A stretch of DNA of 40,181 nt. It comes from a virus. The translations under genes were made by a program, and so were the position numbers. Positions 5,269-40,181 of this stretch are shown in pieces. Below the pieces are notes generated by a model. The model had not been told where the DNA came from and did no database searches. It saw only the letters and a list, made by a program, of their open reading frames with translations. Within the stretch, counting starts at the first letter, position 1. Each line of letters begins with the position of its first letter. Location: the IMG/VR virus record IMGVR_UViG_3300020036_002545, one strand, 5' to 3'.

Positions 5269-5895
5269 ATGAAAACACTTAAAGTCACAGCAAAAGACAT
5301 CAAGAAATCAGACTCATACTGGTCAGACTACATTGGAACAACAGACGTATCAAACTACGATGGTCATATTGAAATCGACGGCAATCTCGGGTATGTAAAG
5401 TTTTTATCTATTAAAGCAACAGGTCACATCTGGGCAGAGGCTGGTTCGGGTATCAAGGCTGGTTGGGGTATCGAGGCTGGTGAGGGTATCGAGGCTGGTT
5501 CGGGTATCGAGGCTGGTTGGGGTATCGAGGCTGGTGAGGGTATCGAGGCTGGTTCGGGTATCGAGGCTGGTTGGGGTATCGAGGCTGGTGAGGGTATCGA
5601 GGCTGGTTGGGGTATCGAGGCTGGTTGGGGTATCGAGGCTGGTGAGGGTATCTTTTCACTTTACTCATATGTAAAAGCAAAACTCGCAATCTCATTCAAC
5701 GCAAAGTGTACTCTTTCTGCTGGTATATTCTCTACGAGTGGCGAAAAAGAAATCGAAGCACAGGAAATTATCGGCGGAAAAGTAATCTACGGAAAAGTCA
5801 CCCTGCTTCCTAAAGAAGAAGTAAAGCCATCACTCGCAGGAAAAGAAGTGTCAGTAACTCTCGACGGTGTAACTTATAAGGCAGTTATTCAGTAG
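5269..5895 (+). CDS. Hexapeptide-repeat (left-handed beta-helix-like) protein
   Basis: 12 consecutive hexapeptides G-I-E-A-G-x, flanked by non-repetitive N- and C-terminal domains. Confidence 0.7.
   Translation: MKTLKVTAKDIKKSDSYWSDYIGTTDVSNYDGHIEIDGNLGYVKFLSIKATGHIWAEAGSGIKAGWGIEAGEGIEAGSGIEAGWGIEAGEGIEAGSGIEAGWGIEAGEGIEAGWGIEAGWGIEAGEGIFSLYSYVKAKLAISFNAKCTLSAGIFSTSGEKEIEAQEIIGGKVIYGKVTLLPKEEVKPSLAGKEVSVTLDGVTYKAVIQ
5437..5652. repeat. 12 x 18-bp tandem repeat (ggtatcgaggctggtNNN), coding
   Basis: The unit repeats with only the last codon changing (tcg/tgg/gag). There is a 54-bp super-period for the first 9 units. Confidence 0.95.
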
Positions 5896-6033: not shown

Positions 6034-6378
6034 ATGACAACAAACAAAGACCTACGAGAGAAGTGGAAGAAAGCCTGTGACCATAGAATATATGCAAAGG
6101 ACACGCGTGACATACTAGATGTAGATGGTACATGTCCGCTTAAACCAGAGGAATATCCAGAAAGCAGATATGAAATAGACGCAGACAGAGCTGCCGACTG
6201 GTTTATCGCCGAACGCAACGCTCTACTGGAGGAGATACGAAAGAAAGTAGATGGTATGCAGTTTATATCGGACGGAGATAGATGCCAATTTAGTATGCAT
6301 ATAGATGGGTACAATCAAGCACTAGAGGAAGTCCTCGCCATCATCTCCTCCCACATTACAAATAACGATACGAAGTAG
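6034..6378 (+). CDS. Hypothetical protein
   Basis: 114-aa ORF. Confidence 0.55.
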   Translation: MTTNKDLREKWKKACDHRIYAKDTRDILDVDGTCPLKPEEYPESRYEIDADRAADWFIAERNALLEEIRKKVDGMQFISDGDRCQFSMHIDGYNQALEEVLAIISSHITNNDTK

Positions 6379-6381
6379 GGT

Positions 6382-6480
6382 ATGCTCAATTCATCAAAAA
6401 TATACAGAAACTTCCCCGTTATAGCGTTTGTAGTCGCGTTTGTAGTAATAGGATTTTGTGTTCTTACAGGAAGTAACTAA
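6382..6480 (+). CDS. Small single-TM membrane protein (32 aa)
   Basis: MLNSSKIYRNFPVIAFVVAFVVIGFCVLTGSN; TAATG overlap with the next ORF. Confidence 0.3.
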   Translation: MLNSSKIYRNFPVIAFVVAFVVIGFCVLTGSN

Positions 6481-6680
6481 TGGATAAATCAGATGAATGC
6501 GGAGTAATGGTACACACCCGAGGGGAAGCAATGGGATTTCCAGCAGGGAGTGGTGCGGTGTACTGTGCGAATCCGAAGCCTTGTAAAATGCACTGTCAAA
6601 ATTGTATTGAATGTGGTGAACTAGTTTCAGAAGAAAACAAGGCAAAAAATTGTCACGATTACTGTAGACTTGAATTATAA
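6480..6680 (+). CDS. Cys-rich small protein
   Basis: 66 aa with 8 Cys, including CKMHCQNCIEC. Confidence 0.45.
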   Translation: MDKSDECGVMVHTRGEAMGFPAGSGAVYCANPKPCKMHCQNCIECGELVSEENKAKNCHDYCRLEL

Positions 6681-6799
6681 ACATGAACCTCAACTCAACG
6701 ACTAATAAGATGGGGATTACTATAGACACAAAAAACAAAAGTATGGTAAAATAAATATGATTATTACTAATCATAAATCCATAAAAATGGAAATGACAT

Positions 6800-7036
6800 A
6801 TGCAACCTATTAAACTTTCAGACGGTTCAGAACTCGTACCACTAGAGCAAGCAGATAAAGAAGCACTCGAAGCAGAACTCAAAGTAGTTTTGGATAAATA
6901 CAACGCTGCCTACCTTCCAGCTCTTAAAGAAGAAGAAACAATAACGTCTAAGACAACAACAGCCGCACTATTTCTTTTAAAGAAAGTGCCAGCACAACCT
7001 CATGGAGAAACCACAGAAACTCCCCAAGCTGACTAA
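6800..7036 (+). CDS. Hypothetical protein
   Basis: 78-aa ORF; overlaps the TerS start by 35 nt. Confidence 0.4.
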   Translation: MQPIKLSDGSELVPLEQADKEALEAELKVVLDKYNAAYLPALKEEETITSKTTTAALFLLKKVPAQPHGETTETPQAD

Positions 7037-7520
7037 GAAACAGAAAGGATTTGTAAAGGACTATATAGCGACTGGAAACGGTGTTCAATCAGCTTTAAAC
7101 AACTACGATACAGACGATTACAGTACAGCAGGTAATATAGCGAGTGATAACCTAAACAAACCTAAAATACAAAAAGCTATTTTGTCAATAGCTGAACAGA
7201 TACCAGATGAGCATTTAGTACGAGTTCACATTGAGGGTTTGAACGCTTCTAAGACAATAAAAACTGCTGACGATGGTACAGACATAGTTGAACCAGATTA
7301 CGCTGTTAGACATAAGTATTTAGATAGCGCGTATAAAATCAAAAGACTCTACGGAACTGAAGAACTTGAGAAACCAAAAGAAAACGTCTACAACTTCTTC
7401 TTTGAACCTAAATTCCAGCAAAATATACGGTCGTATGATGAAAACCTTAAAAACTTAATTCTCAACAAGGATGCTCAAGAAACTAAAGAGACTACGCACA
7501 TTGTGGACACTAGCGGATAA
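7002..7520 (+). CDS. terS: Terminase small subunit
   Basis: LTKKQKGFVKDYIATGNGVQSALNNY...NLNKPKIQKAI matches the Terminase_2-type N-terminal HTH pattern (LT.KQ..F..EY...GN...AA). Confidence 0.65.
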   Translation: MEKPQKLPKLTKKQKGFVKDYIATGNGVQSALNNYDTDDYSTAGNIASDNLNKPKIQKAILSIAEQIPDEHLVRVHIEGLNASKTIKTADDGTDIVEPDYAVRHKYLDSAYKIKRLYGTEELEKPKENVYNFFFEPKFQQNIRSYDENLKNLILNKDAQETKETTHIVDTSG

Positions 7521-7704
7521 AGACCCTGAATACTTAAAGGCTATAGAGAATCTGACTAAGGAAGACATCACATCTATTCCTAGTGGAAACGGCAAAGCAA
7601 CCTTTATTCCCTTGATGTCTGAATCACAGCGCGACCAGTATCTACACGACCAGCAACCAGTATGGAAGAAGTTTAACGAGCGTTTAAAGGAGATAATGAA
7701 ATGA
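7471..7704 (+). CDS. Hypothetical protein
   Basis: 77-aa ORF overlapping TerS by 50 nt; the true start may be an internal TTG near 7501. Confidence 0.4.
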   Translation: MLKKLKRLRTLWTLADKDPEYLKAIENLTKEDITSIPSGNGKATFIPLMSESQRDQYLHDQQPVWKKFNERLKEIMK

Positions 7705-8108
7705 TTGACTACTCAGAAACTCACCCAGATTTCCTACGCCTACAAAACAAGCTAGAGAAAGTATGGGAAGAACGAGACACACAAGCTCAACGTGAAGCCG
7801 TAAAGAATGAGTTAGAAGTAAACGAGGATATTCCAGCTCAAATCTTCTACTGTAAACGATGTAAGCAAGACTATTTCCCTCGCCGTATCGTAAAGGTAGA
7901 ACAGCAAGACTGGAACACTCACGGTACGTTCCGCTTCTGGCGTTCAAAGCATTGTGGTATATGGAATGTTAGACTGATTACCCAGAAGATTAAAGACCCG
8001 TTTTTCATTAAAAGCCCGTCTGTAATTCGAGACAGACGTTTACACAAGCTGGATATGTTGCAACCAACAGAAACTGGCTTTGATATGCTCTACAAAAAGA
8101 ATGTATAA
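7701..8108 (+). CDS. Hypothetical protein with CxxC pair
   Basis: 135 aa; FYCKRCKQ...HCGIWN; ATGA overlap upstream. Confidence 0.5.
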   Translation: MIDYSETHPDFLRLQNKLEKVWEERDTQAQREAVKNELEVNEDIPAQIFYCKRCKQDYFPRRIVKVEQQDWNTHGTFRFWRSKHCGIWNVRLITQKIKDPFFIKSPSVIRDRRLHKLDMLQPTETGFDMLYKKNV

Positions 8109-8481
8109 CGACTACTACCTACTCAAACGAGTGCAAGAAGAACAAGGTGCTGTTTCATTTGCTAGTGTGCAGGATAGCTTTACTTATAAGGGTGAAGTCA
8201 TCGCATGTCCACCAAGTGAATTAAAATATAAATTAATAAGCGAATGTTGTAACGCTGATATAAAACATGCAACAGGAGTTTCCGATATAACTGGTAATTA
8301 CACTTATGAAAGTTTTTGCCTATCTTGTTGTGGTAAAAATCCTAAGGTATTACAAGGTAATTATAATCCTAAGATTGGCGATACAGTCCTATTCCTAAAA
8401 GGCTCTGGTGAAGACGTAACAATAAACGGCGAACAGATGAAAGCAGTGAAATTGGAAGATATAATAATGAAAATCGACTAA
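8101..8481 (+). CDS. GroES/Cpn10-like co-chaperonin with Cys-rich insertion
   Basis: Hand alignment to GroES:
- LLKRV ~ VIVKR
- YKGEVIA ~ TRGEVLA
- KIGDTVLFLKGSGEDVTINGEQMKAVKLEDIIMKI ~ [36 protein letters not shown]
An insert of about 45 aa (CC...H...C..CC) sits at the roof-hairpin position. Confidence 0.55.
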   Translation: MYNDYYLLKRVQEEQGAVSFASVQDSFTYKGEVIACPPSELKYKLISECCNADIKHATGVSDITGNYTYESFCLSCCGKNPKVLQGNYNPKIGDTVLFLKGSGEDVTINGEQMKAVKLEDIIMKID

Positions 8482-8699
8482 TGAAAACTATCGGACATAT
8501 CGTAAAGTTAGACCCTACTAAGAAATATCTAATGCTTCTAGATATTAAAGAGATGAGAAAAGACGACATGAGAGAACTCGCAAACCTTATTAACTACATG
8601 AAAGACGGCGAACTCGTCACGGTTGCTCTAAATGATTTTGGAAGTGTTAAATTTGTCGAACTTAATGGTGAAATAGAAATAGGGTACGAAAAAATATAA
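8481..8699 (+). CDS. Hypothetical protein between the co-chaperonin and the chaperonin
   Basis: 72-aa ORF; TAATG overlaps on both sides. Confidence 0.5.
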   Translation: MKTIGHIVKLDPTKKYLMLLDIKEMRKDDMRELANLINYMKDGELVTVALNDFGSVKFVELNGEIEIGYEKI

Positions 8700-10252
8700 T
8701 GAAAAAGATACTTTTTGGTAACAACGGCAGTAAGCGTATTCTAAAAGGCATAAACATCACAACGGACGCAGTAGCCCCTACGCTCGGTGTAGTTGGAAAG
8801 CGTGCAATTCTCGACGCTGGACATCTTGACCCTATCTTTGCAGACGATGGCGCAAAGATACTCAACATGATTGACATCGAAGACCGTTGGGAACAGATGG
8901 GCAACCGTCTCATGCGTAAGATTGTCAACAAGATGCACCACAAGGCTGGCTCTGGTCGTACAACATCTGCCGTCCTTGCTCGTGCATTCGCTAATGAGGC
9001 ATATAAGGCTATAAAAAGAGGCACAGACCAGCGTGAAGTTGTAGAACGCCTAGAGAATGGATTGAAGAAGACCATCGAAATCCTCTCTACAATGAAGCGT
9101 GAAGTAAAAGACGAGGACGTTAAACGCCTTGCTCTCACTGAATCACTCGATGAAGACGTTGCAAACATAATCGCTAAGGCAGTAAAAGAACTCGGTAAAA
9201 ACGGGGTTATTTCTGTTGAAGAAAGCAACAAGGTAGAGCTTACGCTTGAAACCGTAAAGGGTATGCGTATCAAGAAAGGGCTTATCTCAGAGCATTTCGT
9301 CAATGACCCAGAGAAGAACCGTTGTGTATTGCAGAACCCGTATATCCTTATAGCCGACCGCCGTATCGCAACGAACTTTCAGATAAAGAACATTCTCGAA
9401 GCTATGGTTGCACAGGGTAGAACTGACTTGCTCGTCGTTGCTATGGACATAGAGGGAGAAGCTCTTGCATCGCTCATAATCAACCATCAGCGCAGAGCTA
9501 TGAATATAGCTTGCGTCCAAGCTCCGTACAAAGGACAGGCTCAGAGAGATTTCCTTGTTGACCTAGCTACTCTCACAGGTGGAACTGTTGTTAGTGAAGA
9601 AGCTGGAATGTTCCTCGATAAAGTAGGACTAGAAGTTCTTGGACAGGCTAACCAAATCACTGTAACCAAGGATGAGACGATTGTCTCTGGTGGCAAGGCT
9701 GATGAACAGGCTCTAAAAGACCGTATAATCGTCGTAGAGCAGTTTATTGAGCAGACTGCGGAGTATGACCGTAAAGTCGCACAAGAACGCTTGGCAGGGC
9801 TTACAAGCGGCGTAGGAGTCATTAGAGTTGGTGCGTTCACTGTAGACGAACTCCGTTTGAAGCGTGACAAGATTGAGGACGCTGTAAATTCGACTATGTT
9901 GTCCCTTGATGAGGGTATAGTAGCTGGTGGTGGAAGCTCACTTGTCCGTGTTGCAGGAATGATTGAAGACCCTATGTTTAAGCGTGCGCTTCTTGCACCG
10001 TTCAAGCAGATGGAAAAGAACGCAGGAATGAATCAAGGCTTTTGGAAGAAGAACACAGTCAAACAGATACAGGACAATAAGGATATAGGCTATGACTTTA
10101 AGTCTAAAAAGATAGTCAATATGTTCCGAGCAGGTATCATTGACCCTTACAAGGTAGAGCGTATAGCACTTGAAACAGCTATCTCTATCGCGTCTATCTT
10201 TGCTTCCCTCGATGTGTTCTGTGCGGAGTTCCCTGAAAAACAAGATAACTAA
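8699..10252 (+). CDS. groEL: GroEL-like group I chaperonin (Cpn60)
   Basis: Matches to GroEL:
- KILFGNNGSKRILKGINITTDAVAPTLGVVGKRAIL ~ [36 protein letters not shown]
- AGSGRTTSAVLA ~ AGDGTTTATVLA
- EGIVAGGG motif present
517 aa. Confidence 0.85.
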   Translation: MKKILFGNNGSKRILKGINITTDAVAPTLGVVGKRAILDAGHLDPIFADDGAKILNMIDIEDRWEQMGNRLMRKIVNKMHHKAGSGRTTSAVLARAFANEAYKAIKRGTDQREVVERLENGLKKTIEILSTMKREVKDEDVKRLALTESLDEDVANIIAKAVKELGKNGVISVEESNKVELTLETVKGMRIKKGLISEHFVNDPEKNRCVLQNPYILIADRRIATNFQIKNILEAMVAQGRTDLLVVAMDIEGEALASLIINHQRRAMNIACVQAPYKGQAQRDFLVDLATLTGGTVVSEEAGMFLDKVGLEVLGQANQITVTKDETIVSGGKADEQALKDRIIVVEQFIEQTAEYDRKVAQERLAGLTSGVGVIRVGAFTVDELRLKRDKIEDAVNSTMLSLDEGIVAGGGSSLVRVAGMIEDPMFKRALLAPFKQMEKNAGMNQGFWKKNTVKQIQDNKDIGYDFKSKKIVNMFRAGIIDPYKVERIALETAISIASIFASLDVFCAEFPEKQDN

Positions 10253-11847
10253 TGCAATCCGCACCAGATGTAAAAGAATACTCAATACTTCACTGGCTAT
10301 TTCACAACGGAATTACTAGTGAGAAAGGTGAACCATTGGACTTTAAAGACCATGCATTTCTTCTCGATATTCTTACAGACTGGTCTAAAAACATTGCAGT
10401 AAAGGCGTGCGCTCAGGTGGGTAAATCGGTTACGTTCAACTACAAAGCTCTCTTTGCCTGTGATAAGTTTCGCTGGAACATCATCTACACGATGCCGACT
10501 GACGAATCAGTCCGAGAGTTCGTAGGAACAAAGACAAACCGAATACTAGGAGCGAATCCACAGGCTTTCAAGGGTATACAAACGGACAACATCGAGCGAA
10601 AGGACATTAACGGACGAACTATCTTCTTTAAAGGAACTGAATCAAAGTCCGGTCCTATCTCGACTACTGCTGACTTGCTTATCCATGACGAGGCGAGCCG
10701 TTCCAACCAGGAGGCTTTGAACACCTACAAGTCTCGTACAAAGGACAGTAACTATAAAGGACGTTGGTTGTTCTCAAACCCTACGACAGAGCGTGATGTC
10801 CTTGACCTTGAATGGCAGAAATCTGACATGAAAGAGTGGCATATTACTTGTCCTCATTGTTCAGACGAACACTACCTAAACTTCCCAGATAGTATTGACA
10901 AAGAGCGCAGATGTTACATATGCAAGAACTGTAAAGAGCCTATAAGCGACGATGTTAGACGCAGAGGTAGATGGATTGACCGCGATGGTGTTGTGTGGAG
11001 AGGAGAGCTTAATCCTCGATACAAAGTCTCTGGCTGGCATCTATCCCACCTTATTGCCACAAAGATTACCGTTGACGAAGTATTAGAGGATAGCGAGGGT
11101 GACCAAGAATACTTCAACAACTTCGTACTTGGAGAGCCATATAACCCAGGAGACCTGACAGTATCGCGCACAACAATCCTCGACCTGTGGACACCTAAAG
11201 ACCTTGTTACTGGCAACTACTTCCTTGGTGTAGACGTAGGAAACATAAAGCACTACGTCCTCGGTAGCGAACACGGTATCATCAAGGTAGGTAAATTCAC
11301 TGAATGGCAAGTACTCGATGACATGATGAAGTTCTACAAGCCAAAGCTAGTCATTGACGCGCTCCCAGATAGCACAATGTCCAAGTACTTTGTAAAGACC
11401 TACCGAAACGCGCTGATGTGGTATCCGATGGAGAACGCCAATAATCCACAGCTCGTAGTCTGGTATGGAGAGAACGAAAAGAAAGGCATCATCTACAGCC
11501 ACAGAGACCGCAGTATTGACATGATGATTGACGATATGGTGCAAGCTAAGTTCCTCGTTGGTGTACCGAGTAATAAAGAGTTCGTTGAATACATCAAACA
11601 CTTCGAGACTTTGCGCCGAGTGAAGGACACAAATGCCAAAGGTATAGAGCGATACATCTGGGAGAGTACGACAAATGTTGACCACTATTGTTTTGCTACA
11701 TTGTATTATCGTCTGGCAGTAGGAAGTGCATCGAACGGAGCTTTCTTACCAGAGACACCAAAGCCGTATCAGATAATCTCTGACAACAACAAGGTTGGTG
11801 AATGGTCGAAATACTTCGATAATCTAAAATACTCAAAAGATGAATAA
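10252..11847 (+). CDS. terL: Terminase large subunit (GpA-like)
   Basis: Walker A-like KACAQVGKS, Walker B LLIHDEAS, and zinc ribbon CPHCSDEH...CKNCKEP as in lambda gpA-type terminases; 531 aa. Confidence 0.8.
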   Translation: MQSAPDVKEYSILHWLFHNGITSEKGEPLDFKDHAFLLDILTDWSKNIAVKACAQVGKSVTFNYKALFACDKFRWNIIYTMPTDESVREFVGTKTNRILGANPQAFKGIQTDNIERKDINGRTIFFKGTESKSGPISTTADLLIHDEASRSNQEALNTYKSRTKDSNYKGRWLFSNPTTERDVLDLEWQKSDMKEWHITCPHCSDEHYLNFPDSIDKERRCYICKNCKEPISDDVRRRGRWIDRDGVVWRGELNPRYKVSGWHLSHLIATKITVDEVLEDSEGDQEYFNNFVLGEPYNPGDLTVSRTTILDLWTPKDLVTGNYFLGVDVGNIKHYVLGSEHGIIKVGKFTEWQVLDDMMKFYKPKLVIDALPDSTMSKYFVKTYRNALMWYPMENANNPQLVVWYGENEKKGIIYSHRDRSIDMMIDDMVQAKFLVGVPSNKEFVEYIKHFETLRRVKDTNAKGIERYIWESTTNVDHYCFATLYYRLAVGSASNGAFLPETPKPYQIISDNNKVGEWSKYFDNLKYSKDE

Positions 11848-12070
11848 TGTAACTGTTATACTCACGCCAACAACAGCAGAGAAATACAAGTTATTTCTTG
11901 AGCATTACGACACGTTTTGTTTTTTGTTAGATAGAAAGGTATTTGACCAGAAAGCCGCAGGAATAACGATAAACTTCGACGCTACTGGTAGAATAGGAAG
12001 CATAACGAGGAATGATGTGTTGTATCTTTCGACAAAGAAGTTCGACAACATGAACCAGAAAGTAGACTAG
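11840..12070 (+). CDS. Hypothetical protein
   Basis: 76-aa ORF overlapping the TerL stop. Confidence 0.5.
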   Translation: MNNVTVILTPTTAEKYKLFLEHYDTFCFLLDRKVFDQKAAGITINFDATGRIGSITRNDVLYLSTKKFDNMNQKVD

Positions 12071-12141
12071 TTGTGCTTTTTGTGAAGTATTGTGGTATAA
12101 TTTTAGTAATTAAATAGATTAAGCTCAAACTTATAAAAACA

Positions 12142-12179
12142 AGAGAGCAATGTCACTTCGGTGGCGTTGCTCTCTTTTG
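12142..12179 (+). terminator. Long hairpin with UUCG tetraloop, short T-tract (terminator or RNA-processing/stability element)
   Basis: agagagcaatgtcac-TTCG-gtggcgttgctctct is about 15 bp including G-U pairs, followed by TTTG. It lies 5 nt upstream of the portal ATG. Confidence 0.55.
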
Positions 12180-12183
12180 CATT

Positions 12184-14202
12184 ATGGCAAAATTTTCAGT
12201 AGCAAAACTTAGTGATAGCGATAAAGCAAAACTCATAGAGACACGCTGGGCTTCTTCCGACAATCTCTGGCAGACAATCAAGAAAACTACCGAGATAAAC
12301 ACAAAGGCATACGAAAATAAAAGTCCTTGGATTGACCAGATACCAGCTACTATCGCAAAAATACAAGCAAACCGTATTTTCCCTAACATGGAGGCGGTTA
12401 TTAACTCCGTTATTGCAAATCCTCCTGGTATTAACTTCATTCCAGGCCGTGATAGTGAAGAAAGCGAAAGTCTTGCACGAAAACTCGAAGGATTTTACAA
12501 AAAGAAGTTCCTAGAGCGCAACGTAAAAGAAACAATGCGTATGGGTCTTCGTAAGCTCTACTTCTCTCGCCTTATAGTCCTAAAACCTTTTTGGAACGCT
12601 AAGATAAACGACTGGGATGTTAAATCTCTTGACCCAAACAACGTCCGTTTTGGTAAATATGCCAAAAATGAACAGGAATCAGAGTTCGCTATCGAGGAAG
12701 TAAAAGACAATCTTTGCGCTCTTTTGCAACGCTTTCCTGAAAAGGAGAAACAGATACTCGAAAAGAGTGGGTTTACAGAAGAAACTGCTGACCAAGCGTA
12801 CATAATGAACCCTGAAGTCAAGTACAAAGAGGCTTGGATAGGTGATTACGTCATTTTCAAGTACGACAACATCATTCTCGGTACAATGCGTAACCCTTAT
12901 TGGGATTGGGACGGTATCTTGCTCTCAGACGAAGAAGAACAGCAAATAAACGCAACATATGGGGACACACGCCGTCAGATATTCACACAGGCTAAACTTG
13001 ACCAAGATGTACGCCAGCCTAGCCCAGAAGTAGAGACAAATGCTCCACAGGCAGTAGAGGGCGAAATACCTGCTAACGAGGGTCACAGCGAAGCACAGAG
13101 CTTTAAATCGTACTATTTCAACTACTTTGACCAGCCACGCAAGCCATACATCTTTGCAACTATCCTAAACGACGAGAATCAGCCTATAGGACGTACAGAC
13201 TTCATCACTCTATCGCTTCCGCTTCAGATGGCTATTGACCGCCGTAAGCAGGACATCGGACAGAACTGTGAGCTTGTAAACGGTGTCATAAAGGTAGATA
13301 GCGAAGTAATGGGCAAATCAGACGCACAGTCTCTCGCATATGAAGCTAAAGGCATTATCTGGGGTAAGGGAGTTGTCGCAGGTGTGCAACGTGAAACAGG
13401 TACACCACTTCCTCCTATGGTCATGGAAGATATGTTGGATTCTCGCTCTGAGATTGACAACATCATGGCAGCATCGTCCGCTTTCCGTGGAGAACGTGAA
13501 GGACAGGAAACAAAGGCAGGTCGTCTTGCTCTCATTCAACAGTCATTCCTACGCTTAAACGAGCTTGTGCAGTGCGTAGACTATGTATATGGAGAACTTG
13601 TCGGATGGGCTTACCAACTCTCAAAGACTCGTTACACTGAGTATCACTACGCTAAATGGATTGGTAAAGAATCAGCAACAGAAGTTATTGACCTTATCCA
13701 AGACGATTTCGAGACAGGTTCAGAAGTACAGGTTATCCCAGGCAAAACACTTCCAGTAGATAGCGAGTTCCGCTTTGAACGCGCACAGGAAGATGTCAAA
13801 TCAGGCATTCTCGCTCCACAGGATTACATGGAAGAAGCTGGATATAACAATCCTAAAGACCTTGCTATGAACGCAGTTAAATACAAGCTAAACCCTGCGG
13901 TTGCAGTTGGTATCACACCAGAGGAAATGCAACAGCTTGCACCTCCTGCACAGAAAGAGGAAAAGCCACCGAGTGTATCTATCTCTTACGCAGACCTTCC
14001 GATAGACGCACAAGTACAGCTTCTCGCACAGATAGGCATACAGGCTGACCCAGAAATAATCGTAGCCGAGAAAGTCGCAGAACGTGAACAAGGTAAGAAA
14101 GATATGGCACTCAAAGAAGACAATCACATACACAGTCAAATGATGAGTGAACGTAGCCAAGCGATGGCAGAAAAGCAGCCTGAAAAAGTAAAAAAAGAAT
14201 AA
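12184..14202 (+). CDS. Portal protein
   Basis: 672 aa; next large gene after TerL and upstream of scaffold and MCP. The K/E-rich C-terminal tail is typical of portals. Confidence 0.7.
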   Translation: MAKFSVAKLSDSDKAKLIETRWASSDNLWQTIKKTTEINTKAYENKSPWIDQIPATIAKIQANRIFPNMEAVINSVIANPPGINFIPGRDSEESESLARKLEGFYKKKFLERNVKETMRMGLRKLYFSRLIVLKPFWNAKINDWDVKSLDPNNVRFGKYAKNEQESEFAIEEVKDNLCALLQRFPEKEKQILEKSGFTEETADQAYIMNPEVKYKEAWIGDYVIFKYDNIILGTMRNPYWDWDGILLSDEEEQQINATYGDTRRQIFTQAKLDQDVRQPSPEVETNAPQAVEGEIPANEGHSEAQSFKSYYFNYFDQPRKPYIFATILNDENQPIGRTDFITLSLPLQMAIDRRKQDIGQNCELVNGVIKVDSEVMGKSDAQSLAYEAKGIIWGKGVVAGVQRETGTPLPPMVMEDMLDSRSEIDNIMAASSAFRGEREGQETKAGRLALIQQSFLRLNELVQCVDYVYGELVGWAYQLSKTRYTEYHYAKWIGKESATEVIDLIQDDFETGSEVQVIPGKTLPVDSEFRFERAQEDVKSGILAPQDYMEEAGYNNPKDLAMNAVKYKLNPAVAVGITPEEMQQLAPPAQKEEKPPSVSISYADLPIDAQVQLLAQIGIQADPEIIVAEKVAEREQGKKDMALKEDNHIHSQMMSERSQAMAEKQPEKVKKE

Positions 14203-15033: not shown

Positions 15034-16095
15034 ATGCAGTTTTCACCAGCAGTCACAACAGTAACCCGTAAGCTCATCCCTAAAAAGATTTTCGATACGG
15101 TAACACTTGGTACGCCAGGTCTTATGACTTTCATGCGTACGTCTAAGGATTGGAACACAGGTACATCATATGCTCCTGTAATTCAGTACCAGGACACAAC
15201 AAACGGAGGCAACACAGGTATCGCTAACCAGCTCGATTCAGACCGTCAGAACACTCGTGTTTCTATGGACTTCGAGGTAAAGATGGCTTACAAGCCTGTA
15301 GTAGTAGCAGACATCGAAGTTACGCTCAACAAGGGCGATGAACAGATTGTTCAGCTCCTTGAAGCAGAATTTGATACACAGGGTAAGTCGCTCTTGAACC
15401 TCATGGCGAACAACCTTTATCAGGGAACTGGTACAGGCAACTCATGGGACTCACTTGCTAACGCAGCAGCGGACAGCACTGTCTACGCAACGTACGGCTC
15501 ACTCTCACGCTCTACATACACATCTATCAACGGTTACTACCTCGCATCTACAGGAGCTATTACGCTCGCTAAGATGGCTACAGGTTTCGACGCAGTTACA
15601 GTAGGTATGGATGAGCCGACAGTTATGCTCACAACAAAGTCAATCTGGTCTTCATACGAAGCTCTCTTGACTCCTACACTCCGTGCTTCATTCCAGACAT
15701 TCGCAGCACCTAACTACGACCAGTACGGTATGCTCATGGACTCAAAGTCTAACGCTTTCGGTACTCAGGGATTCCGCGCTATCACATACCGTGGTGTTCC
15801 AGTAGTAAAGGACGAGCAGGTTCCATCAGGTAAGTTTATCTTCGCTAACCAGACTGCTTTCGGAATGAAAGGAGTAAACATAACTGGTCAGGACTACGAT
15901 ACTCTTAACTTTAAGAAGCTCTCGAACTCTGTGCCAACAGGTGTCCCAGGTAACGTGCCATCAGCAAAGGGATTCAACTTCCGTGTTATGAAGGCTCCAG
16001 TAGACCAGCTCTCACAGGTAGGATACTTGCTCTTTGCAGGTAACTTCTGTTCAGAGAACCCACGTCTCCTTGGAACAATGAGTGGAACAACCTAG
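15034..16095 (+). CDS. Major capsid protein
   Basis: 353 aa; follows the scaffold; composition and size fit an HK97-fold MCP; a triple-hairpin block follows downstream. Confidence 0.65.
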   Translation: MQFSPAVTTVTRKLIPKKIFDTVTLGTPGLMTFMRTSKDWNTGTSYAPVIQYQDTTNGGNTGIANQLDSDRQNTRVSMDFEVKMAYKPVVVADIEVTLNKGDEQIVQLLEAEFDTQGKSLLNLMANNLYQGTGTGNSWDSLANAAADSTVYATYGSLSRSTYTSINGYYLASTGAITLAKMATGFDAVTVGMDEPTVMLTTKSIWSSYEALLTPTLRASFQTFAAPNYDQYGMLMDSKSNAFGTQGFRAITYRGVPVVKDEQVPSGKFIFANQTAFGMKGVNITGQDYDTLNFKKLSNSVPTGVPGNVPSAKGFNFRVMKAPVDQLSQVGYLLFAGNFCSENPRLLGTMSGTT

Positions 16096-19797: not shown

Positions 19798-21426
19798 ATG
19801 GCAGATGAAGTACTAAAAAGAGACCAAAACCGTGTGACTGTACTTGCAGGTGTTACAGATAATGTCGCGCAAGACATCACTATGCTTCGTTTAGACCCTA
19901 CTACTAAACGTCTGCTTGTTTCTGCTACTGGTATCGGTACAGGAAGTGTTACTTCAATAGCCGCTGGAACAGGTATCCTTGCAACACCAAGCCCAATTAC
20001 AACTACAGGAACTATTGCCCTTGCAACATCATTACAGCCAGTTGCTACCCTTACAGGTAATGGATTGAAAGTCCTACGAGTCAATGCAGGAGAAACAGCA
20101 GTTGAATACGCCGCAGTAGGTACTGGGAGTGTCACCAGCGTCTCTGTGGTGACCGCTAACGGTGTCTCTGGCACAGTTGCGACAGCTTCTACTACTCCAG
20201 CAATTACGCTGTCCCTAGGGGCAATTACGCCCTCTAGTATCGCTGGCACTACATTCTCTGGTAACAACACTTTTTCAGGTGCTAACACATTCACTGCACT
20301 TCCAACGTGTTCAGCCGTACCAACGAATGGAAATGACCTTGTGAATAAAACATTTGTAGAGACTTTTGCACAGGGTCTTACTGTAAAACCGTCTTGTAAT
20401 GTTGCGACAACAGCTAACGTCACACTTTCAGGAGAACAGACTATAGACGGTGTTCTCACTTCTACGTCACGAATTTTAGTTAAAAACCAGAGTGACGCTA
20501 CCGAGAATGGTATTTACGTTACGGCAGCAGGTGCATGGTCTCGTGCCACTGATTACGATACATCTGGTGAAGTCGCACTCGGAACATTTACTGCAATACT
20601 CTCTGGTACAACGCAAGCAAATACTCTCTGGGTACAGACAACTCCTAGCCCTACTTTGGGTAGTAGCAACCTTGTGTTCTCACAGCTTTCTAGTGGTGGA
20701 ACGGGAACAGTAACAAGTGTCTCGGTAGTATCAGCAAATGGACTAGCTGGAACTGTCGCAACTGCTACCACTACGCCAGCTATAACACTCTCATGTTCTG
20801 CTAACGGAATCTTGCAAAGTGACGGTACTTCTATCACAGCAAAATCTGTTTCTGGTAGTGGTGACATCGTACTTGCTACAGGAGCAACGCTCGTTACTCC
20901 GACGCTCGGTGCAGCAACAGCAACGTCAATTAACAAAATGGCGATTACTGCACCTGCTACTTCTTCGACACTTCAGGTGTCTGACGGAAAGACTTTTATA
21001 GCGTCAAACACGCTTACTCTTGCTGGTACTGATGGCACTGTAATGACGTTTCCTAGTACATCACAGACAGTTGTAGGATTGACAGCTACGCAAACACTCA
21101 CTAATAAGGCGATAACACAGCGCGTAGTAACAACAACAGATGACGCTACGGCAGTAATTGACGTAGCCGTAACAGATGTATATGAGCTTTCAGCAATAGC
21201 AAACAACACGACATTCTCGTTCACAGGCAGTCCTACAGACGGACAAAAGTTTATTATCCGATACAAGGATGCCGGGGTATCTAAAACACTTACATGGACT
21301 GGGTTTACAGCTATTGGAGTAACACTTCCAACAGCAACAACGGCAGGAAAATGGGGATATGTTGGTGTGCAATACAACTCGGCGGCGAGTCAGTATCACG
21401 CGATAGCAGTAACAACCCAAGCATAA
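19798..21426 (+). CDS. Tail fibre / receptor-binding protein 1
   Basis: N-terminal adaptor MADEVLKRDQNRVTVLAGVTDNVAQDITMLRLDPTTKRLLVSATG. The internal repeat GTG(S/T)VTSVSVV.ANG..GTVATA.TTPAITLS occurs about 3 times. T/S/G/A-rich. Confidence 0.7.
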   Translation: MADEVLKRDQNRVTVLAGVTDNVAQDITMLRLDPTTKRLLVSATGIGTGSVTSIAAGTGILATPSPITTTGTIALATSLQPVATLTGNGLKVLRVNAGETAVEYAAVGTGSVTSVSVVTANGVSGTVATASTTPAITLSLGAITPSSIAGTTFSGNNTFSGANTFTALPTCSAVPTNGNDLVNKTFVETFAQGLTVKPSCNVATTANVTLSGEQTIDGVLTSTSRILVKNQSDATENGIYVTAAGAWSRATDYDTSGEVALGTFTAILSGTTQANTLWVQTTPSPTLGSSNLVFSQLSSGGTGTVTSVSVVSANGLAGTVATATTTPAITLSCSANGILQSDGTSITAKSVSGSGDIVLATGATLVTPTLGAATATSINKMAITAPATSSTLQVSDGKTFIASNTLTLAGTDGTVMTFPSTSQTVVGLTATQTLTNKAITQRVVTTTDDATAVIDVAVTDVYELSAIANNTTFSFTGSPTDGQKFIIRYKDAGVSKTLTWTGFTAIGVTLPTATTAGKWGYVGVQYNSAASQYHAIAVTTQA

Positions 21427-28894: not shown

Positions 28895-30886
28895 ATGCCC
28901 GATGAAATCCTAAAAAGAGACCAAAATAGAGTAACCGTATTGGCTGGTGTCACAAACGACTCAGACATGGATATTACCATGCTCCGTGTTGACCCAATAA
29001 CAAAAAGATTGTTAGTGGCTGCTACGGGTGGAGGAGGTAGTGCAGTCTGGGGTTCAATCACAGGAACACTCTCCGACCAGACAGACCTACAATCAGCTCT
29101 CGACGCTCGTGTTCCCTACACAGGCGCAACAGCAAACATAAATCTCAACACTCGCAGTATCACGCAAAACCTCATTGACGATACTAGAGGTTATGAAATA
29201 CAAAACACAGGAGGTGATACTCGCGCAATGCTCGGTCTTGGTGCTACGTCAGATGGCTTCCTAAATATTTTCAAAGCCGACAACTCTCTCGGTTTTTCTT
29301 CAGAGGGTGGTAACACATTCACATCTGCACTTTCTATCAACCTCCCAACGTCATTTAGCTACACATCTAACAACCCACTTTCGATAGGTTGGTCGGGTAA
29401 CACATATGGAGGTGGATATATTCAAAACCAATCAACTGGGACATCGGCTTCAGCTGACCTGATTCTTGGAGCAGATAACGACGGAGTAGCCGCGACTGGT
29501 CACTTCATAAACCTCGGTATCAACAACTCCAACTATGCTGGAGTTCTTGGTACTGCTGGAGATGGGTATCTTTACACTTCTGGTGGACACCAATATATTG
29601 GCACAGACACAGCAGGTAAAAATCTCTATTACCAAATAGGTGGTCTTTCGTCTACCAACGTAATCGGTGCTACAAACTCTACAGGTACTGGAATGGGTAC
29701 ACTATCCCCTACCGCACGTTTCCACGCAGTAGGAACAGCTGCTATCGGTACGCCAGTATTCACTGGTGCTGGTCTAAATGACCTTACTGCAGGAGGAACA
29801 TACATCGGAGGTACAAACTCTAACTACACCGTAACTATCTCTACAGTAAGCTCAATATACACATCGGCAGTTAGTGCAGGAGGAAGTGCGTGGGCTATCG
29901 GTGATACGTTCACAATTTCTGGTGGTACATCTGGTACTGGTATAGTCACTGCTGTATCCGCTGGCGCTGTGACTGCATACACAATTACAAACACAGGTTC
30001 TGCGTACACGACTGGTGTAAAAACGTGTACTCGAACGTCTGGTTCTGGTACTGGTCTTTCTATAAACATTACAGTTATTGCAGACAAGTTTAACTGGTTG
30101 AAGACTGGTGGAGCAACAACATTTAGTGTTGTTATAACTGGTGCAGCACAAACACTTGCAGAGGGTGTAACAATCACATTTGCGGCGCAGTCTGGTCACA
30201 CGGCATCAAACTCGTGGGCAGTACCAGTCACTGCTGTAAACCTATTCACTGGTGTCAGTAATACTGGTGCTGTAAACGCGTCTATCTCAAACTCTGGTGT
30301 TGCAACACTATCTGGTGATACTGCTCGTTTTGTCGCAGTAAACACATCGAATAGTCAATCTGTAACTATTTCTCCGACATCTATAGTAATTTCAACAACC
30401 ACAGGTGCAAACGGAGGAACTATAATTTCCGGTGGAGCTAACTTGCTTCAATTTGATAGTCCATTCCGTGTAACGTCACAAACGGTTCGCCCATACATGA
30501 ACGGCGGTGCATATAGCTCGACTGTCGGACGTATTACGTCAGCAGAAAACACGACAATGGGTATCGGATTCCCTGCAGCGAACTCGTTTAACTTTATAGT
30601 AAACTCAATCGAGCACGCTCGTCTTGACCTAAATGGTATGTTGCTCGGTTCAACTACTACAGTGAAAATGGGGCTATGGGGTAAAACTCCGATTGTACAG
30701 CCTGTAACTGCTCCATATACACCAGATGCACAATCTGTTGCATACACTGGTATCGACAACTTGCAGCCAGGCACTGTGTACGCAACCGTTGCTGATTTAA
30801 ACACGCTTCGTGTCGCGTATGAAAACCTACGGGTTGCATATGACGATTTACGAACACTCGTTATTTCAACAGGATTAGTAGCTTAA
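28895..30886 (+). CDS. Tail fibre / receptor-binding protein 2
   Basis: N-terminal MPDEILKRDQNRVTVLAGVTNDSDMDITMLRVDPITKRLLVAATGGGG is shared with 19798 and 19209; T/G/S-rich body of 663 aa. Confidence 0.7.
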   Translation: MPDEILKRDQNRVTVLAGVTNDSDMDITMLRVDPITKRLLVAATGGGGSAVWGSITGTLSDQTDLQSALDARVPYTGATANINLNTRSITQNLIDDTRGYEIQNTGGDTRAMLGLGATSDGFLNIFKADNSLGFSSEGGNTFTSALSINLPTSFSYTSNNPLSIGWSGNTYGGGYIQNQSTGTSASADLILGADNDGVAATGHFINLGINNSNYAGVLGTAGDGYLYTSGGHQYIGTDTAGKNLYYQIGGLSSTNVIGATNSTGTGMGTLSPTARFHAVGTAAIGTPVFTGAGLNDLTAGGTYIGGTNSNYTVTISTVSSIYTSAVSAGGSAWAIGDTFTISGGTSGTGIVTAVSAGAVTAYTITNTGSAYTTGVKTCTRTSGSGTGLSINITVIADKFNWLKTGGATTFSVVITGAAQTLAEGVTITFAAQSGHTASNSWAVPVTAVNLFTGVSNTGAVNASISNSGVATLSGDTARFVAVNTSNSQSVTISPTSIVISTTTGANGGTIISGGANLLQFDSPFRVTSQTVRPYMNGGAYSSTVGRITSAENTTMGIGFPAANSFNFIVNSIEHARLDLNGMLLGSTTTVKMGLWGKTPIVQPVTAPYTPDAQSVAYTGIDNLQPGTVYATVADLNTLRVAYENLRVAYDDLRTLVISTGLVA

Positions 30887-40030: not shown

Positions 40031-40181
40031 ATGAATAAAAAAAGAATAGAACTACTCGGAACGCTTCACATCAAAAAAGTACCAGAAGCACTCAAAGATA
40101 AAATATATAGTCATATAAAAGACCGCCGTGGTATGTCACAGTTTGTACGAGAGGCTATGGAGGAGAAATTAGCACGCGATA
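40031..40181 (+). CDS. Ribbon-helix-helix protein, N-terminal part (continues at 1..150 in the circular molecule)
   Basis: The ATG 40031 frame runs into the terminal repeat and matches frame 1 of bases 1-150. Confidence 0.6.
   Translation, partial: MNKKRIELLGTLHIKKVPEALKDKIYSHIKDRRGMSQFVREAMEEKLARD
40061..40181. repeat. Terminal direct repeat copy 2
   Basis: Identical to 1-121. Confidence 0.95.

Follow-up and report, generated by a model that had tools for sequence, protein, structure and literature searches.

A GroES/GroEL-like pair with a seemingly remodelled ATP site in the packaging operon of an uncultured 40-kb phage

The IMG/VR virus record IMGVR_UViG_3300020036_002545, a 40,181-nucleotide stretch of DNA that we analysed at its full length and call the window, encodes a GroES-like protein of 126 amino acids (aa) and a GroEL-like protein of 517 aa between the genes of the small (TerS) and large (TerL) terminase subunits. 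We conclude that these two proteins are probably a phage-encoded group I chaperonin, consisting of a GroES-like lid and a GroEL-like ring, and that the ATP site of the ring appears to have been remodelled. The key departure concerns Asp87 of Escherichia coli GroEL. Throughout, residues 87, 89, 150 and 151 are numbered as in E. coli GroEL; their equivalents in the window protein are Ser85, Arg87, Thr147 and Glu148. A first-pass annotation of this DNA had aligned a Ser with Asp87, and this assignment stands: HMMER and MAFFT both place the phosphate-binding loop AGSGRTT on AGDGTTT and keep the Ser at that residue. We checked whether a proper alignment would bring an Asp to position 87, and it did not; nor is there a nearby Asp to stand in for it, as the loop lies in the context HHKAGSGRTTS and residue 83 is a His.

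The replacement is fixed in an entire clade of relatives, which we defined as 40 cluster representatives (P0072–P0111) with 67% identity or more to the query and 64–99% identity among themselves. Ser87, Arg89, Thr150 and Glu151 are all present in 40/40. For comparison, 1.84 billion proteins in 50%-identity clusters were searched, and the 150 best cluster representatives were taken. Of these, 148 have Asp at position 87, one has Asn and one has a gap, and a second comparison set has Asp87 in 80/80. In the same 150, position 151 is Ser in 135 representatives and Ala in 14, and is never Asp or Glu. The next clade, 57–58% identical to the query, carries GDGRST together with Ile150 and Ala151, and GDGT[TSA]T is found in more distant phage-like and cellular sequences. 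We could not find an earlier description of an Asp87 replacement that spans a clade and is accompanied by coordinated changes of residues 89, 150 and 151; a literature search for GDGTTT in connection with phage chaperonins returned nothing.

The remainder of the site is strongly conserved. Within the clade, 22 of the 30 nucleotide-pocket positions are invariant compared to 165 of 517 (32%) positions overall (Fisher p=2e-6). T30-G32, G53, T90, T91, D398, G414-416 and D495 are present in the query and invariant in all 40 representatives, as are the hinge glycines G192, G375 and G410, and Asp52 is present in the query and in 38 of the 40. The 517-aa protein therefore misses one defining motif, GDGTTT, and keeps the other nucleotide-binding and catalytic residues. 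Only seven of the replacements fixed in the clade (T55K, D87S, T89R, I150T, V169L, T331I and G374S) fall on residues with a conservation of 90% or more elsewhere; D87S, T89R and I150T are at pocket positions, and T55K is two residues beyond Gly53. With conservation in the remaining pocket exceeding that of the whole protein, the ATP site looks remodelled and not decayed. The first-pass annotation had raised the possibility of altered or absent ATPase chemistry: altered chemistry is the better reading, and absence is less likely as the other ligands, Asp52 and Asp398 are kept.

In E. coli GroEL, the D87K and D87N mutants bind ATP but have no ATPase activity and are lethal, and the I150E and S151V mutations severely impair the ATPase (Fenton 1994, as cited in PMC3268035). 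In the GroES-bound R'' state, Asp87 touches Ser151 and Asp398 (PMC3053311), the latter being a helix-M residue tied to the catalysis of ATP hydrolysis (PMC3814418). Asp87 also caps helix D, the far end of which is the Ala109 inter-ring contact (PMC3814418). The loss of Asp87 could thus be uncompensated, in which case the ring would be dead for hydrolysis and would bind ATP and the lid to act as a single-turnover cage or holdase for capsid protein. The E. coli Asp87 mutants behave in this way, and the loss of inter-ring contacts described below fits a non-cycling single ring. Furthermore, a related GroEL clade on ~40-kb contigs (P0125–P0148, e.g. L023:3001-4542) retains Asp87 but has Asp398 changed to Asn in 21 of 24 representatives, so that hydrolysis seems prone to modification in these phages. 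However, Asp52 and Asp398 (the latter in 40/40), both relevant for hydrolysis only, are kept in the clade lacking Asp87, a new carboxylate has appeared at position 151, adjoining residue 87, and the release of the lid from a ring that does not hydrolyse ATP would need another mechanism. The conservation of the pocket is compatible with binding only, yet it is stronger than expected for that function. We consider a hydrolysis-dead ring unlikely. The Asp398-to-Asn clade itself appears to represent a second, independent change of ATP-site residues in the same group of phages.

The 517-aa protein is a homologue of GroEL. It matches Pfam Cpn60_TCP1 (PF00118) with 136 bits (cutoff 34.3; 2e-39) and PHROG 5725, ‘chaperonin groEL’, at 9e-103, and a phmmer search of the PDB aligns its residues 2-513 to residues 3-525 of E. 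coli GroEL in a near-colinear manner (E=7e-100, 37% identity). It passes the NCBIfam models NF000592 (429 vs 397 bits) and NF009487 (424 vs 352 bits) and is below the cutoff of the stricter equivalog TIGR02348 (419 vs 582 bits). The EGIVAGGG motif reported in the first pass is present, and the alignment to GroEL noted there extends over the full length of the protein, which we identify as a full-length homologue of the group I chaperonin GroEL.

Further departures from E. coli GroEL lie outside the ATP site. The apical residues Y199, Y203, F204, L234, L237, L259, V263 and V264, which bind GroES and substrate, are L, H, F, K, L, L, I and I here: six of the eight are hydrophobic, three are identical to E. 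coli, and L234K is present in 40/40 clade representatives. The inter-ring contacts are not conserved (A109R, with K or R in 37/40; R452K, E461N and S463G; positions 434 and 464 deleted). E386, the partner of R197 in the R197-E386 bridge, is V, I or A in the clade, so this bridge is not conserved either, and the protein terminates in ...EFPEKQDN without the C-terminal Gly-Met tail. Because the inter-ring contacts, the bridge and the tail are lost, we conjecture that the allostery of this GroEL may be altered and that it may function as a single ring.

The best named match of the 517-aa protein in both the PDB and the phage-collection searches is a bacterial GroEL. This is what a host groESL operon captured recently as a moron, or cellular contamination, would produce, in either case without adaptation specific to the phage. 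The best cellular relatives, however, are only 37–39% identical, a deep clade of relatives resides on ~40-kb contigs between TerS and TerL, and the genes are translationally coupled to TerL on a contig that is a closed phage genome. The low cellular identity, the coupling to TerL and the closed genome already contradict contamination or recent capture, which we rejected as extremely improbable. The closest named cellular GroELs (P0146–P0191; 36–39% identity) belong to Patescibacteria, also known as the Candidate Phyla Radiation (CPR) (Candidatus Doudnabacteria, Patescibacteria group bacterium), and this similarity is a possible but weak hint on the host or on the origin of the gene.

The profile matches of the 126-aa protein are marginal by themselves. 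It contains the three GroES landmarks that had been noted in it, LLKRV, YKGEV and KIGDTVLFLKGSGEDV...LEDIIMKI, and is located two genes upstream of GroEL, as reported, with one 72-aa open reading frame (ORF) in between. Pfam Cpn10 (PF00166) matches residues 90-124 only, at 21.5 bits (cutoff 21.1), and the NCBIfam GroES models give 23.5 bits against cutoffs of at least 96. Seventy homologues of 76–100 aa are 56–80% identical to it outside the insert described below, and many of them have a precomputed PF00166 match; the GroES of a sister clade (L022), 45% identical, reaches 35 bits on Pfam Cpn10. An AlphaFold2 (AF2) model calculated from an alignment of 71 homologues has a six-strand core with a predicted local distance difference test (pLDDT) score above 90 over residues 91-126. 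When this model was compared to the PDB with Foldseek, ranks 1-35 were all Cpn10, GroES or gp31 structures (probability 0.98–1.0 for ranks 1-32, target TM-score up to 0.70), including chains from GroEL-GroES complexes and, at rank 35, T4 gp31 (1G31). A non-Cpn10 fold, which had been named as grounds for abandoning the GroES assignment, was rejected on this result, and the 126-aa protein is a predicted Cpn10-fold co-chaperonin homologue. Its predicted mobile loop (residues 11-27, VQEEQGAVSFASVQDSF) has no secondary structure in the AF2 model and lies between strands 5-10 and 28-35. It is ~6 residues shorter than the E. coli loop; T4 gp31 has a longer mobile loop. A nearly invariant Gly16 is followed by Ala-Val-Ser, with a polar third position, where the family consensus is G-A-V-A-Y.

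The Cys-rich insert of the first-pass annotation aligns with the roof hairpin of E. coli GroES, as proposed there, and comprises 55 residues, flanked by Pro37, which is invariant, and Gly93, which is nearly so. It carries five Cys and one His (C49, C50, H56, C73, C76 and C77), and C36 directly precedes it. The roofs of the 70 relatives are 8–30 residues long (mode 15) with 0–2 Cys, and none is Cys-rich. The 55-aa roof thus appears to be the extreme of a hypervariable loop, unique to this phage and not a family trait. In the AF2 model, it has a pLDDT below 50 and no secondary structure. At 29%, its guanine-cytosine (GC) content is below the 40% of the remaining gene and the 41.6% of the genome; although 165 nucleotides are a small sample, this suggests that this AT-rich insert is of recent or foreign origin. 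Gene calls on five contigs give exactly this 126-aa protein, and the loci examined, three in number, derive from three Joint Genome Institute (JGI) samples; the insert is therefore real and not an assembly artefact. Searches for its source gave nothing: it has no Pfam or NCBIfam family and no match elsewhere in the window, in the loci of the relatives or in their proteins. A scan of IMG/VR with the GroES family recovered 11 loci, none with a long roof, and a search of 5.8 billion proteins yielded no candidate, a weak negative since the word index missed even the parent protein. We rejected an origin from an intein or a mobile element, as the insert is too short and has no repeats and no homologue. 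A literature search by titles found no earlier description of an enlarged Cys-rich GroES roof.

Two explanations of the roof appear about equally likely. One CxxC (C73, C76), two CC pairs and H56 make a metal site possible, whereas a zinc ribbon or knuckle has two CxxC/CxxH knuckles on a small beta hairpin; in an assembled lid, the seven copies of the roof would come together on top of the dome, around the seven-fold axis. Alternatively, the roof has no function of its own and is a recent, tolerated and neutral expansion of a weakly constrained loop in a GroES that works like its short-roofed relatives. Roof length varies in the 70 relatives while the remainder of the protein is conserved, T4 gp31 and several viral GroES clusters have no roof whatsoever (PMC5649160), and this insert is AT-rich, has no homologue or predicted structure and is found in one population only. 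On the other hand, six Cys and one His in or around 55 residues of a cytoplasmic protein, far from the composition seen in the relatives, weigh against a functionless loop, as do a CxxC flanked by CC pairs and a reading frame that is intact in five contigs. We give the functionless roof slightly less than an even chance.

The pair is part of a recurrent genomic arrangement. As the first-pass annotation had it, the genes sit between TerS and TerL, which are assigned here by Pfam and PHROG. Relatives of GroES (70) and of GroEL (more than 70) are often located on contigs of 36–43 kb with the order Cpn10-Cpn60-TerL-portal. In two close relatives, L005 and L007 (38–40 kb), the order is 129-135-aa CxxC protein, GroES, GroEL, TerL, small ORF and portal, and the module is also present in sister clades with the canonical Asp87 (L022, 40.3 kb; L024) and in the Asp398-to-Asn clade (L023, 42.5 kb). 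A large group of uncultured ~40-kb phages thus has the chaperonin module as an ancestral trait. The GroES gene is always co-oriented with cpn60 in the loci compared: it abuts GroEL in L005 and L007, where nothing corresponds to the 72-aa ORF, and is separated from it by one short ORF in the window and in L009, in which an unrelated 90-aa ORF (L009:2605-2877) takes the place of the 72-aa one. The latter has no Pfam, PHROG or NCBIfam family. The GroES-GroEL junction would thus be a hot spot for small accessory ORFs, and the 72-aa ORF an accessory insertion.

A 129-135-aa protein with a CxxC ... HC pattern is encoded upstream of GroES in all four loci compared (135 aa in the window; L005:3395-3784, L007:3619-4008, L009:1915-2307). 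Its end overlaps the start of GroES in three of the four, and a 75-aa ORF intervenes in L005. It has no Pfam, PHROG or NCBIfam family, and its single-sequence AF2 model is unusable (pLDDT 40). It is a possible third component of the module. At the other end of the module, the TerL of a close relative (L005:5791-8240, L006:3974-6423) is 838 aa long and contains an intein (Pfam Intein_splicing), which the window TerL does not have.

The first-pass annotation had regarded a small phage with both chaperonin genes as unusual. This is an overstatement: viruses with GroES>GroEL operons have been on record since 2017, and the Cpn10-Cpn60-TerL-portal block recurs on many ~40-kb contigs. According to Marine et al. 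2017, GroES is present on 133 of the 337 viral contigs that carry GroEL, both GroES>GroEL and GroEL>GroES operons are common in marine viromes, and Cellulophaga phage phi38:1 has the layout GroES-short ORF-GroEL (PMC5649160). Some phages carrying both chaperonin genes are also mentioned elsewhere (PMC7185714). In the same 2017 study, viral GroES proteins have divergent mobile loops and in part deleted roof hairpins, ATP/Mg sites are the most conserved positions of viral GroELs, and neither Asp87 loss nor roof insertions are mentioned (PMC5649160). The pair described here resembles these virioplankton GroES>GroEL operons in its canonical order, in the short ORF that sometimes separates the genes, in the divergent mobile loop and variable roof, and in the otherwise conserved ATP-site residues. 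It departs from what that study describes by the loss of Asp87 and the expanded roof, and its module is fused to the terminase operon in a genome of 40 kb. GroES/GroEL pairing in a mid-sized phage is thus not new, and the window pair falls into a class, the phage group I chaperonin modules, that was already known.

Among deposited phages, Caudoviricetes sp. cthkR962 (MW202566.1, 38,956 bp, Manatee Spring) is similar in layout: in this ~39-kb phage, a 107-aa protein annotated ‘mhsp60’ is located directly upstream of ‘groeL’, and TerL and portal follow within 1.4 kb. Its GroEL and GroES are only 32% and 13% identical to the pair in the window, and it is of a different lineage. With E. coli GroEL/GroES (1AON, 4PKN), the window pair shares the domain order, the hinge glycines, D52, D398, GGG414-416 and D495, the Cpn10 partner and the groES-groEL gene order. 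It is unlike them in having GSGRTT, I150T, S151E, A109R, E386V and L234K, substitutions at positions 452, 461 and 463, deletions of 434 and 464 and no Gly-Met tail, and its GroES has a shorter mobile loop and a roof of 55 aa compared to about 19. Chlamydial GroEL2 and GroEL3 are natural GroEL paralogues with a reported loss of ATP-site residues, and the NCBIfam ‘variant chaperonin’ exception models under which they are filed are weaker matches to the window protein (165 and 109 bits). Unlike that protein, whose pocket is otherwise strictly conserved, they are cellular paralogues that exist beside a canonical GroEL.

Two better-known phage systems served as candidate models. T4 gp31 and RB49 CocO are, like the 126-aa protein, phage co-chaperonins of the Cpn10 fold, and they are used for capsid protein folding. 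However, gp31 works with host GroEL and has no roof hairpin (PMC5649160), and a gp31-type system was rejected here, where the phage encodes a GroEL itself and its GroES has a shorter loop and an enlarged roof. The giant-phage chaperonins EL gp146, OBP gp246 and AR9 gp228 are likewise phage-encoded GroEL homologues, but they have retained a conserved nucleotide pocket, are ~22% identical to GroEL, with many indels, and have no known co-chaperonin (PMC7185714). They are encoded in genomes of more than 200 kb and not 40 kb. A co-chaperonin-independent, EL-type system was rejected because a co-chaperonin is present and the 517-aa protein is 37% identical to GroEL and near-colinear with it.

The features discussed above and the neighbouring genes are listed in Table 1. 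Bases 1-121 of the window are identical to bases 40061-40181, an exact 121-bp direct terminal repeat, and the window is therefore a complete (circular or circularly permuted) phage genome of 40,060 bp. From TerS, the earliest recognisable gene in the coupled packaging/chaperonin block, through TerL and on to the portal gene, the genes abut or overlap in one run, and the major head protein gene follows further on. At each of the GroES/72-aa ORF (8481), 72-aa ORF/GroEL (8699) and GroEL/TerL (10252) junctions, the stop codon of one gene shares bases with the start codon of the next in a TAATG, and no terminator-like site was found on the + strand in 6300-12300. These junctions and the uninterrupted + strand argue that GroES and GroEL form one coupled expression unit with the packaging and head genes. 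The predicted RNA fold at the GroES start does not differ from that of shuffled sequences (z=-0.8).

Table 1 Chaperonin features and neighbouring genes in the 40,181-nucleotide window
Feature	Position	Strand	Evidence or remark
GroES-like co-chaperonin (Cpn10 fold), 126 aa, ATG start	8101..8481	+	
Predicted mobile loop of GroES, residues 11-27	8131..8181	+	alignment with E. coli GroES
Expanded roof segment of GroES, residues 38-92, 55 aa	8212..8376	+	aligns with E. coli GroES roof hairpin
GroEL-like group I chaperonin, 517 aa	8699..10252	+	
Phosphate-binding loop AGSGRTT (E. coli AGDGTTT); Ser85 = Asp87, Arg87 = Thr89	8945..8965	+	
Thr147-Glu148 (E. coli Ile150-Ser151); acidic residue adjoining nucleotide site	9137..9142	+	
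TerS	7002..7520	+	Pfam Terminase_2 2e-11; PHROG 51 2.7e-13
77-aa ORF	7471-7704		between TerS and 135-aa ORF
135-aa protein, C51-x2-C54 ... H84-C85	7701..8108	+	73-81% identity to 3 related phages
72-aa ORF	8481..8699	+	between GroES and GroEL
TerL, 531 aa	10252..11847	+	Pfam GpA_ATPase 1.3e-19; PHROG 675 1e-69
76-aa ORF			between TerL and portal
Portal protein	12184..14202	+	PHROG 156 3.9e-7; position same in relatives
Major head protein	15034..16095	+	PHROG 9953 2.7e-27

Combining these findings, we propose that the pair most likely works as a folding cage for a head protein that is driven by ATP, depends on the lid and has a rewired Mg site, the main rival being a hydrolysis-dead cage. The pair would fold a structural protein of the phage independently of host GroEL/GroES, and the major head protein would be the most likely client; T4 needs GroEL together with gp31 to fold gp23. 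In P-loop nucleoside triphosphatases, Mg is bound by a Ser/Thr hydroxyl and an acidic residue acts via water. Similarly, the Ser87 hydroxyl, the new Glu151 carboxylate, or both, could supply Mg2+/water coordination in the phage protein, in which the Glu151 position would touch residue 87 upon closure of the intermediate domain. The protein would then still cycle on ATP, at an altered rate or with tighter coupling to domain closure. A more specific version of this mechanism, in which the carboxylate has moved from 87 to 151 along with the change of Thr89 to Arg, hydrolysis is completed only at domain closure, the chaperonin possibly functions as a single ring and GroES bears a metal-binding Cys/His crown, is speculative and has perhaps a modest chance of being correct in all its parts.

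A number of observations weigh against the proposed folding cage: (i) D87S, T89R, I150T and S151E all lie on one branch, and the four changes are therefore a single evolutionary event and not a repeated statistical covariation; (ii) D87N or D87K alone stops hydrolysis in E. coli GroEL, and the clade could therefore be hydrolysis-dead; (iii) L234K, Y199L and Y203H change the canonical surface that binds GroES and substrate; (iv) the Pfam Cpn10 match of the 126-aa protein is marginal; (v) the roof insert, to which the metal-binding crown is attributed, is confined to one phage population and lacks a predicted fold; and (vi) the choice of client protein follows from gene position only.

The clade without Asp87, the mutation of which is lethal in E. 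coli, spans at least 40 sequence clusters and has kept the rest of the pocket strongly constrained. This clade is thus a natural experiment on Mg-ATP coordination in GroEL and on the coupling of hydrolysis to domain closure, and the move of the carboxylate from 87 to 151, if true, would make for a differently gated GroEL motor. Furthermore, self-sufficient GroES/GroEL modules appear to be a stable, ancestral part of the head/packaging operon in widespread ~40-kb uncultured phages and are not confined to jumbo phages. The hypervariable roof, with its Cys-rich extreme in this phage, is the one part of the lid that is seemingly free to evolve, and could be used for asking what the roof does.

A megablast search with positions 7000-12000 of the window gave no match in 50,697 phage records, and the best identities among deposited phages are at most 25% to TerL and at most 37% to GroEL. 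With no close deposited phage, this genome therefore has no cultured relative and no host assignment. Elsewhere in the window, a 94-aa ORF (766-1050, +) consists almost entirely of the 6-nucleotide units GGCTCT, GGCTAT and GGCGAT and would encode a low-complexity (Gly-Ser/Gly-Tyr/Gly-Asp)n protein. An 18-nucleotide tandem repeat of ~16 units (5401-5688) produces a 6-aa repeat in a 208-aa ORF (5269-5895, +) that has no PHROG family. Finally, positions 19798-19857 and 28895-28954 are 78% identical; they are the first 60 nucleotides of an ORF of 542 aa and of one of 663 aa, both long and tail fibre-like or tail-like by PHROG, which share an N-terminal module, as in exchangeable fibre/spike adaptors.

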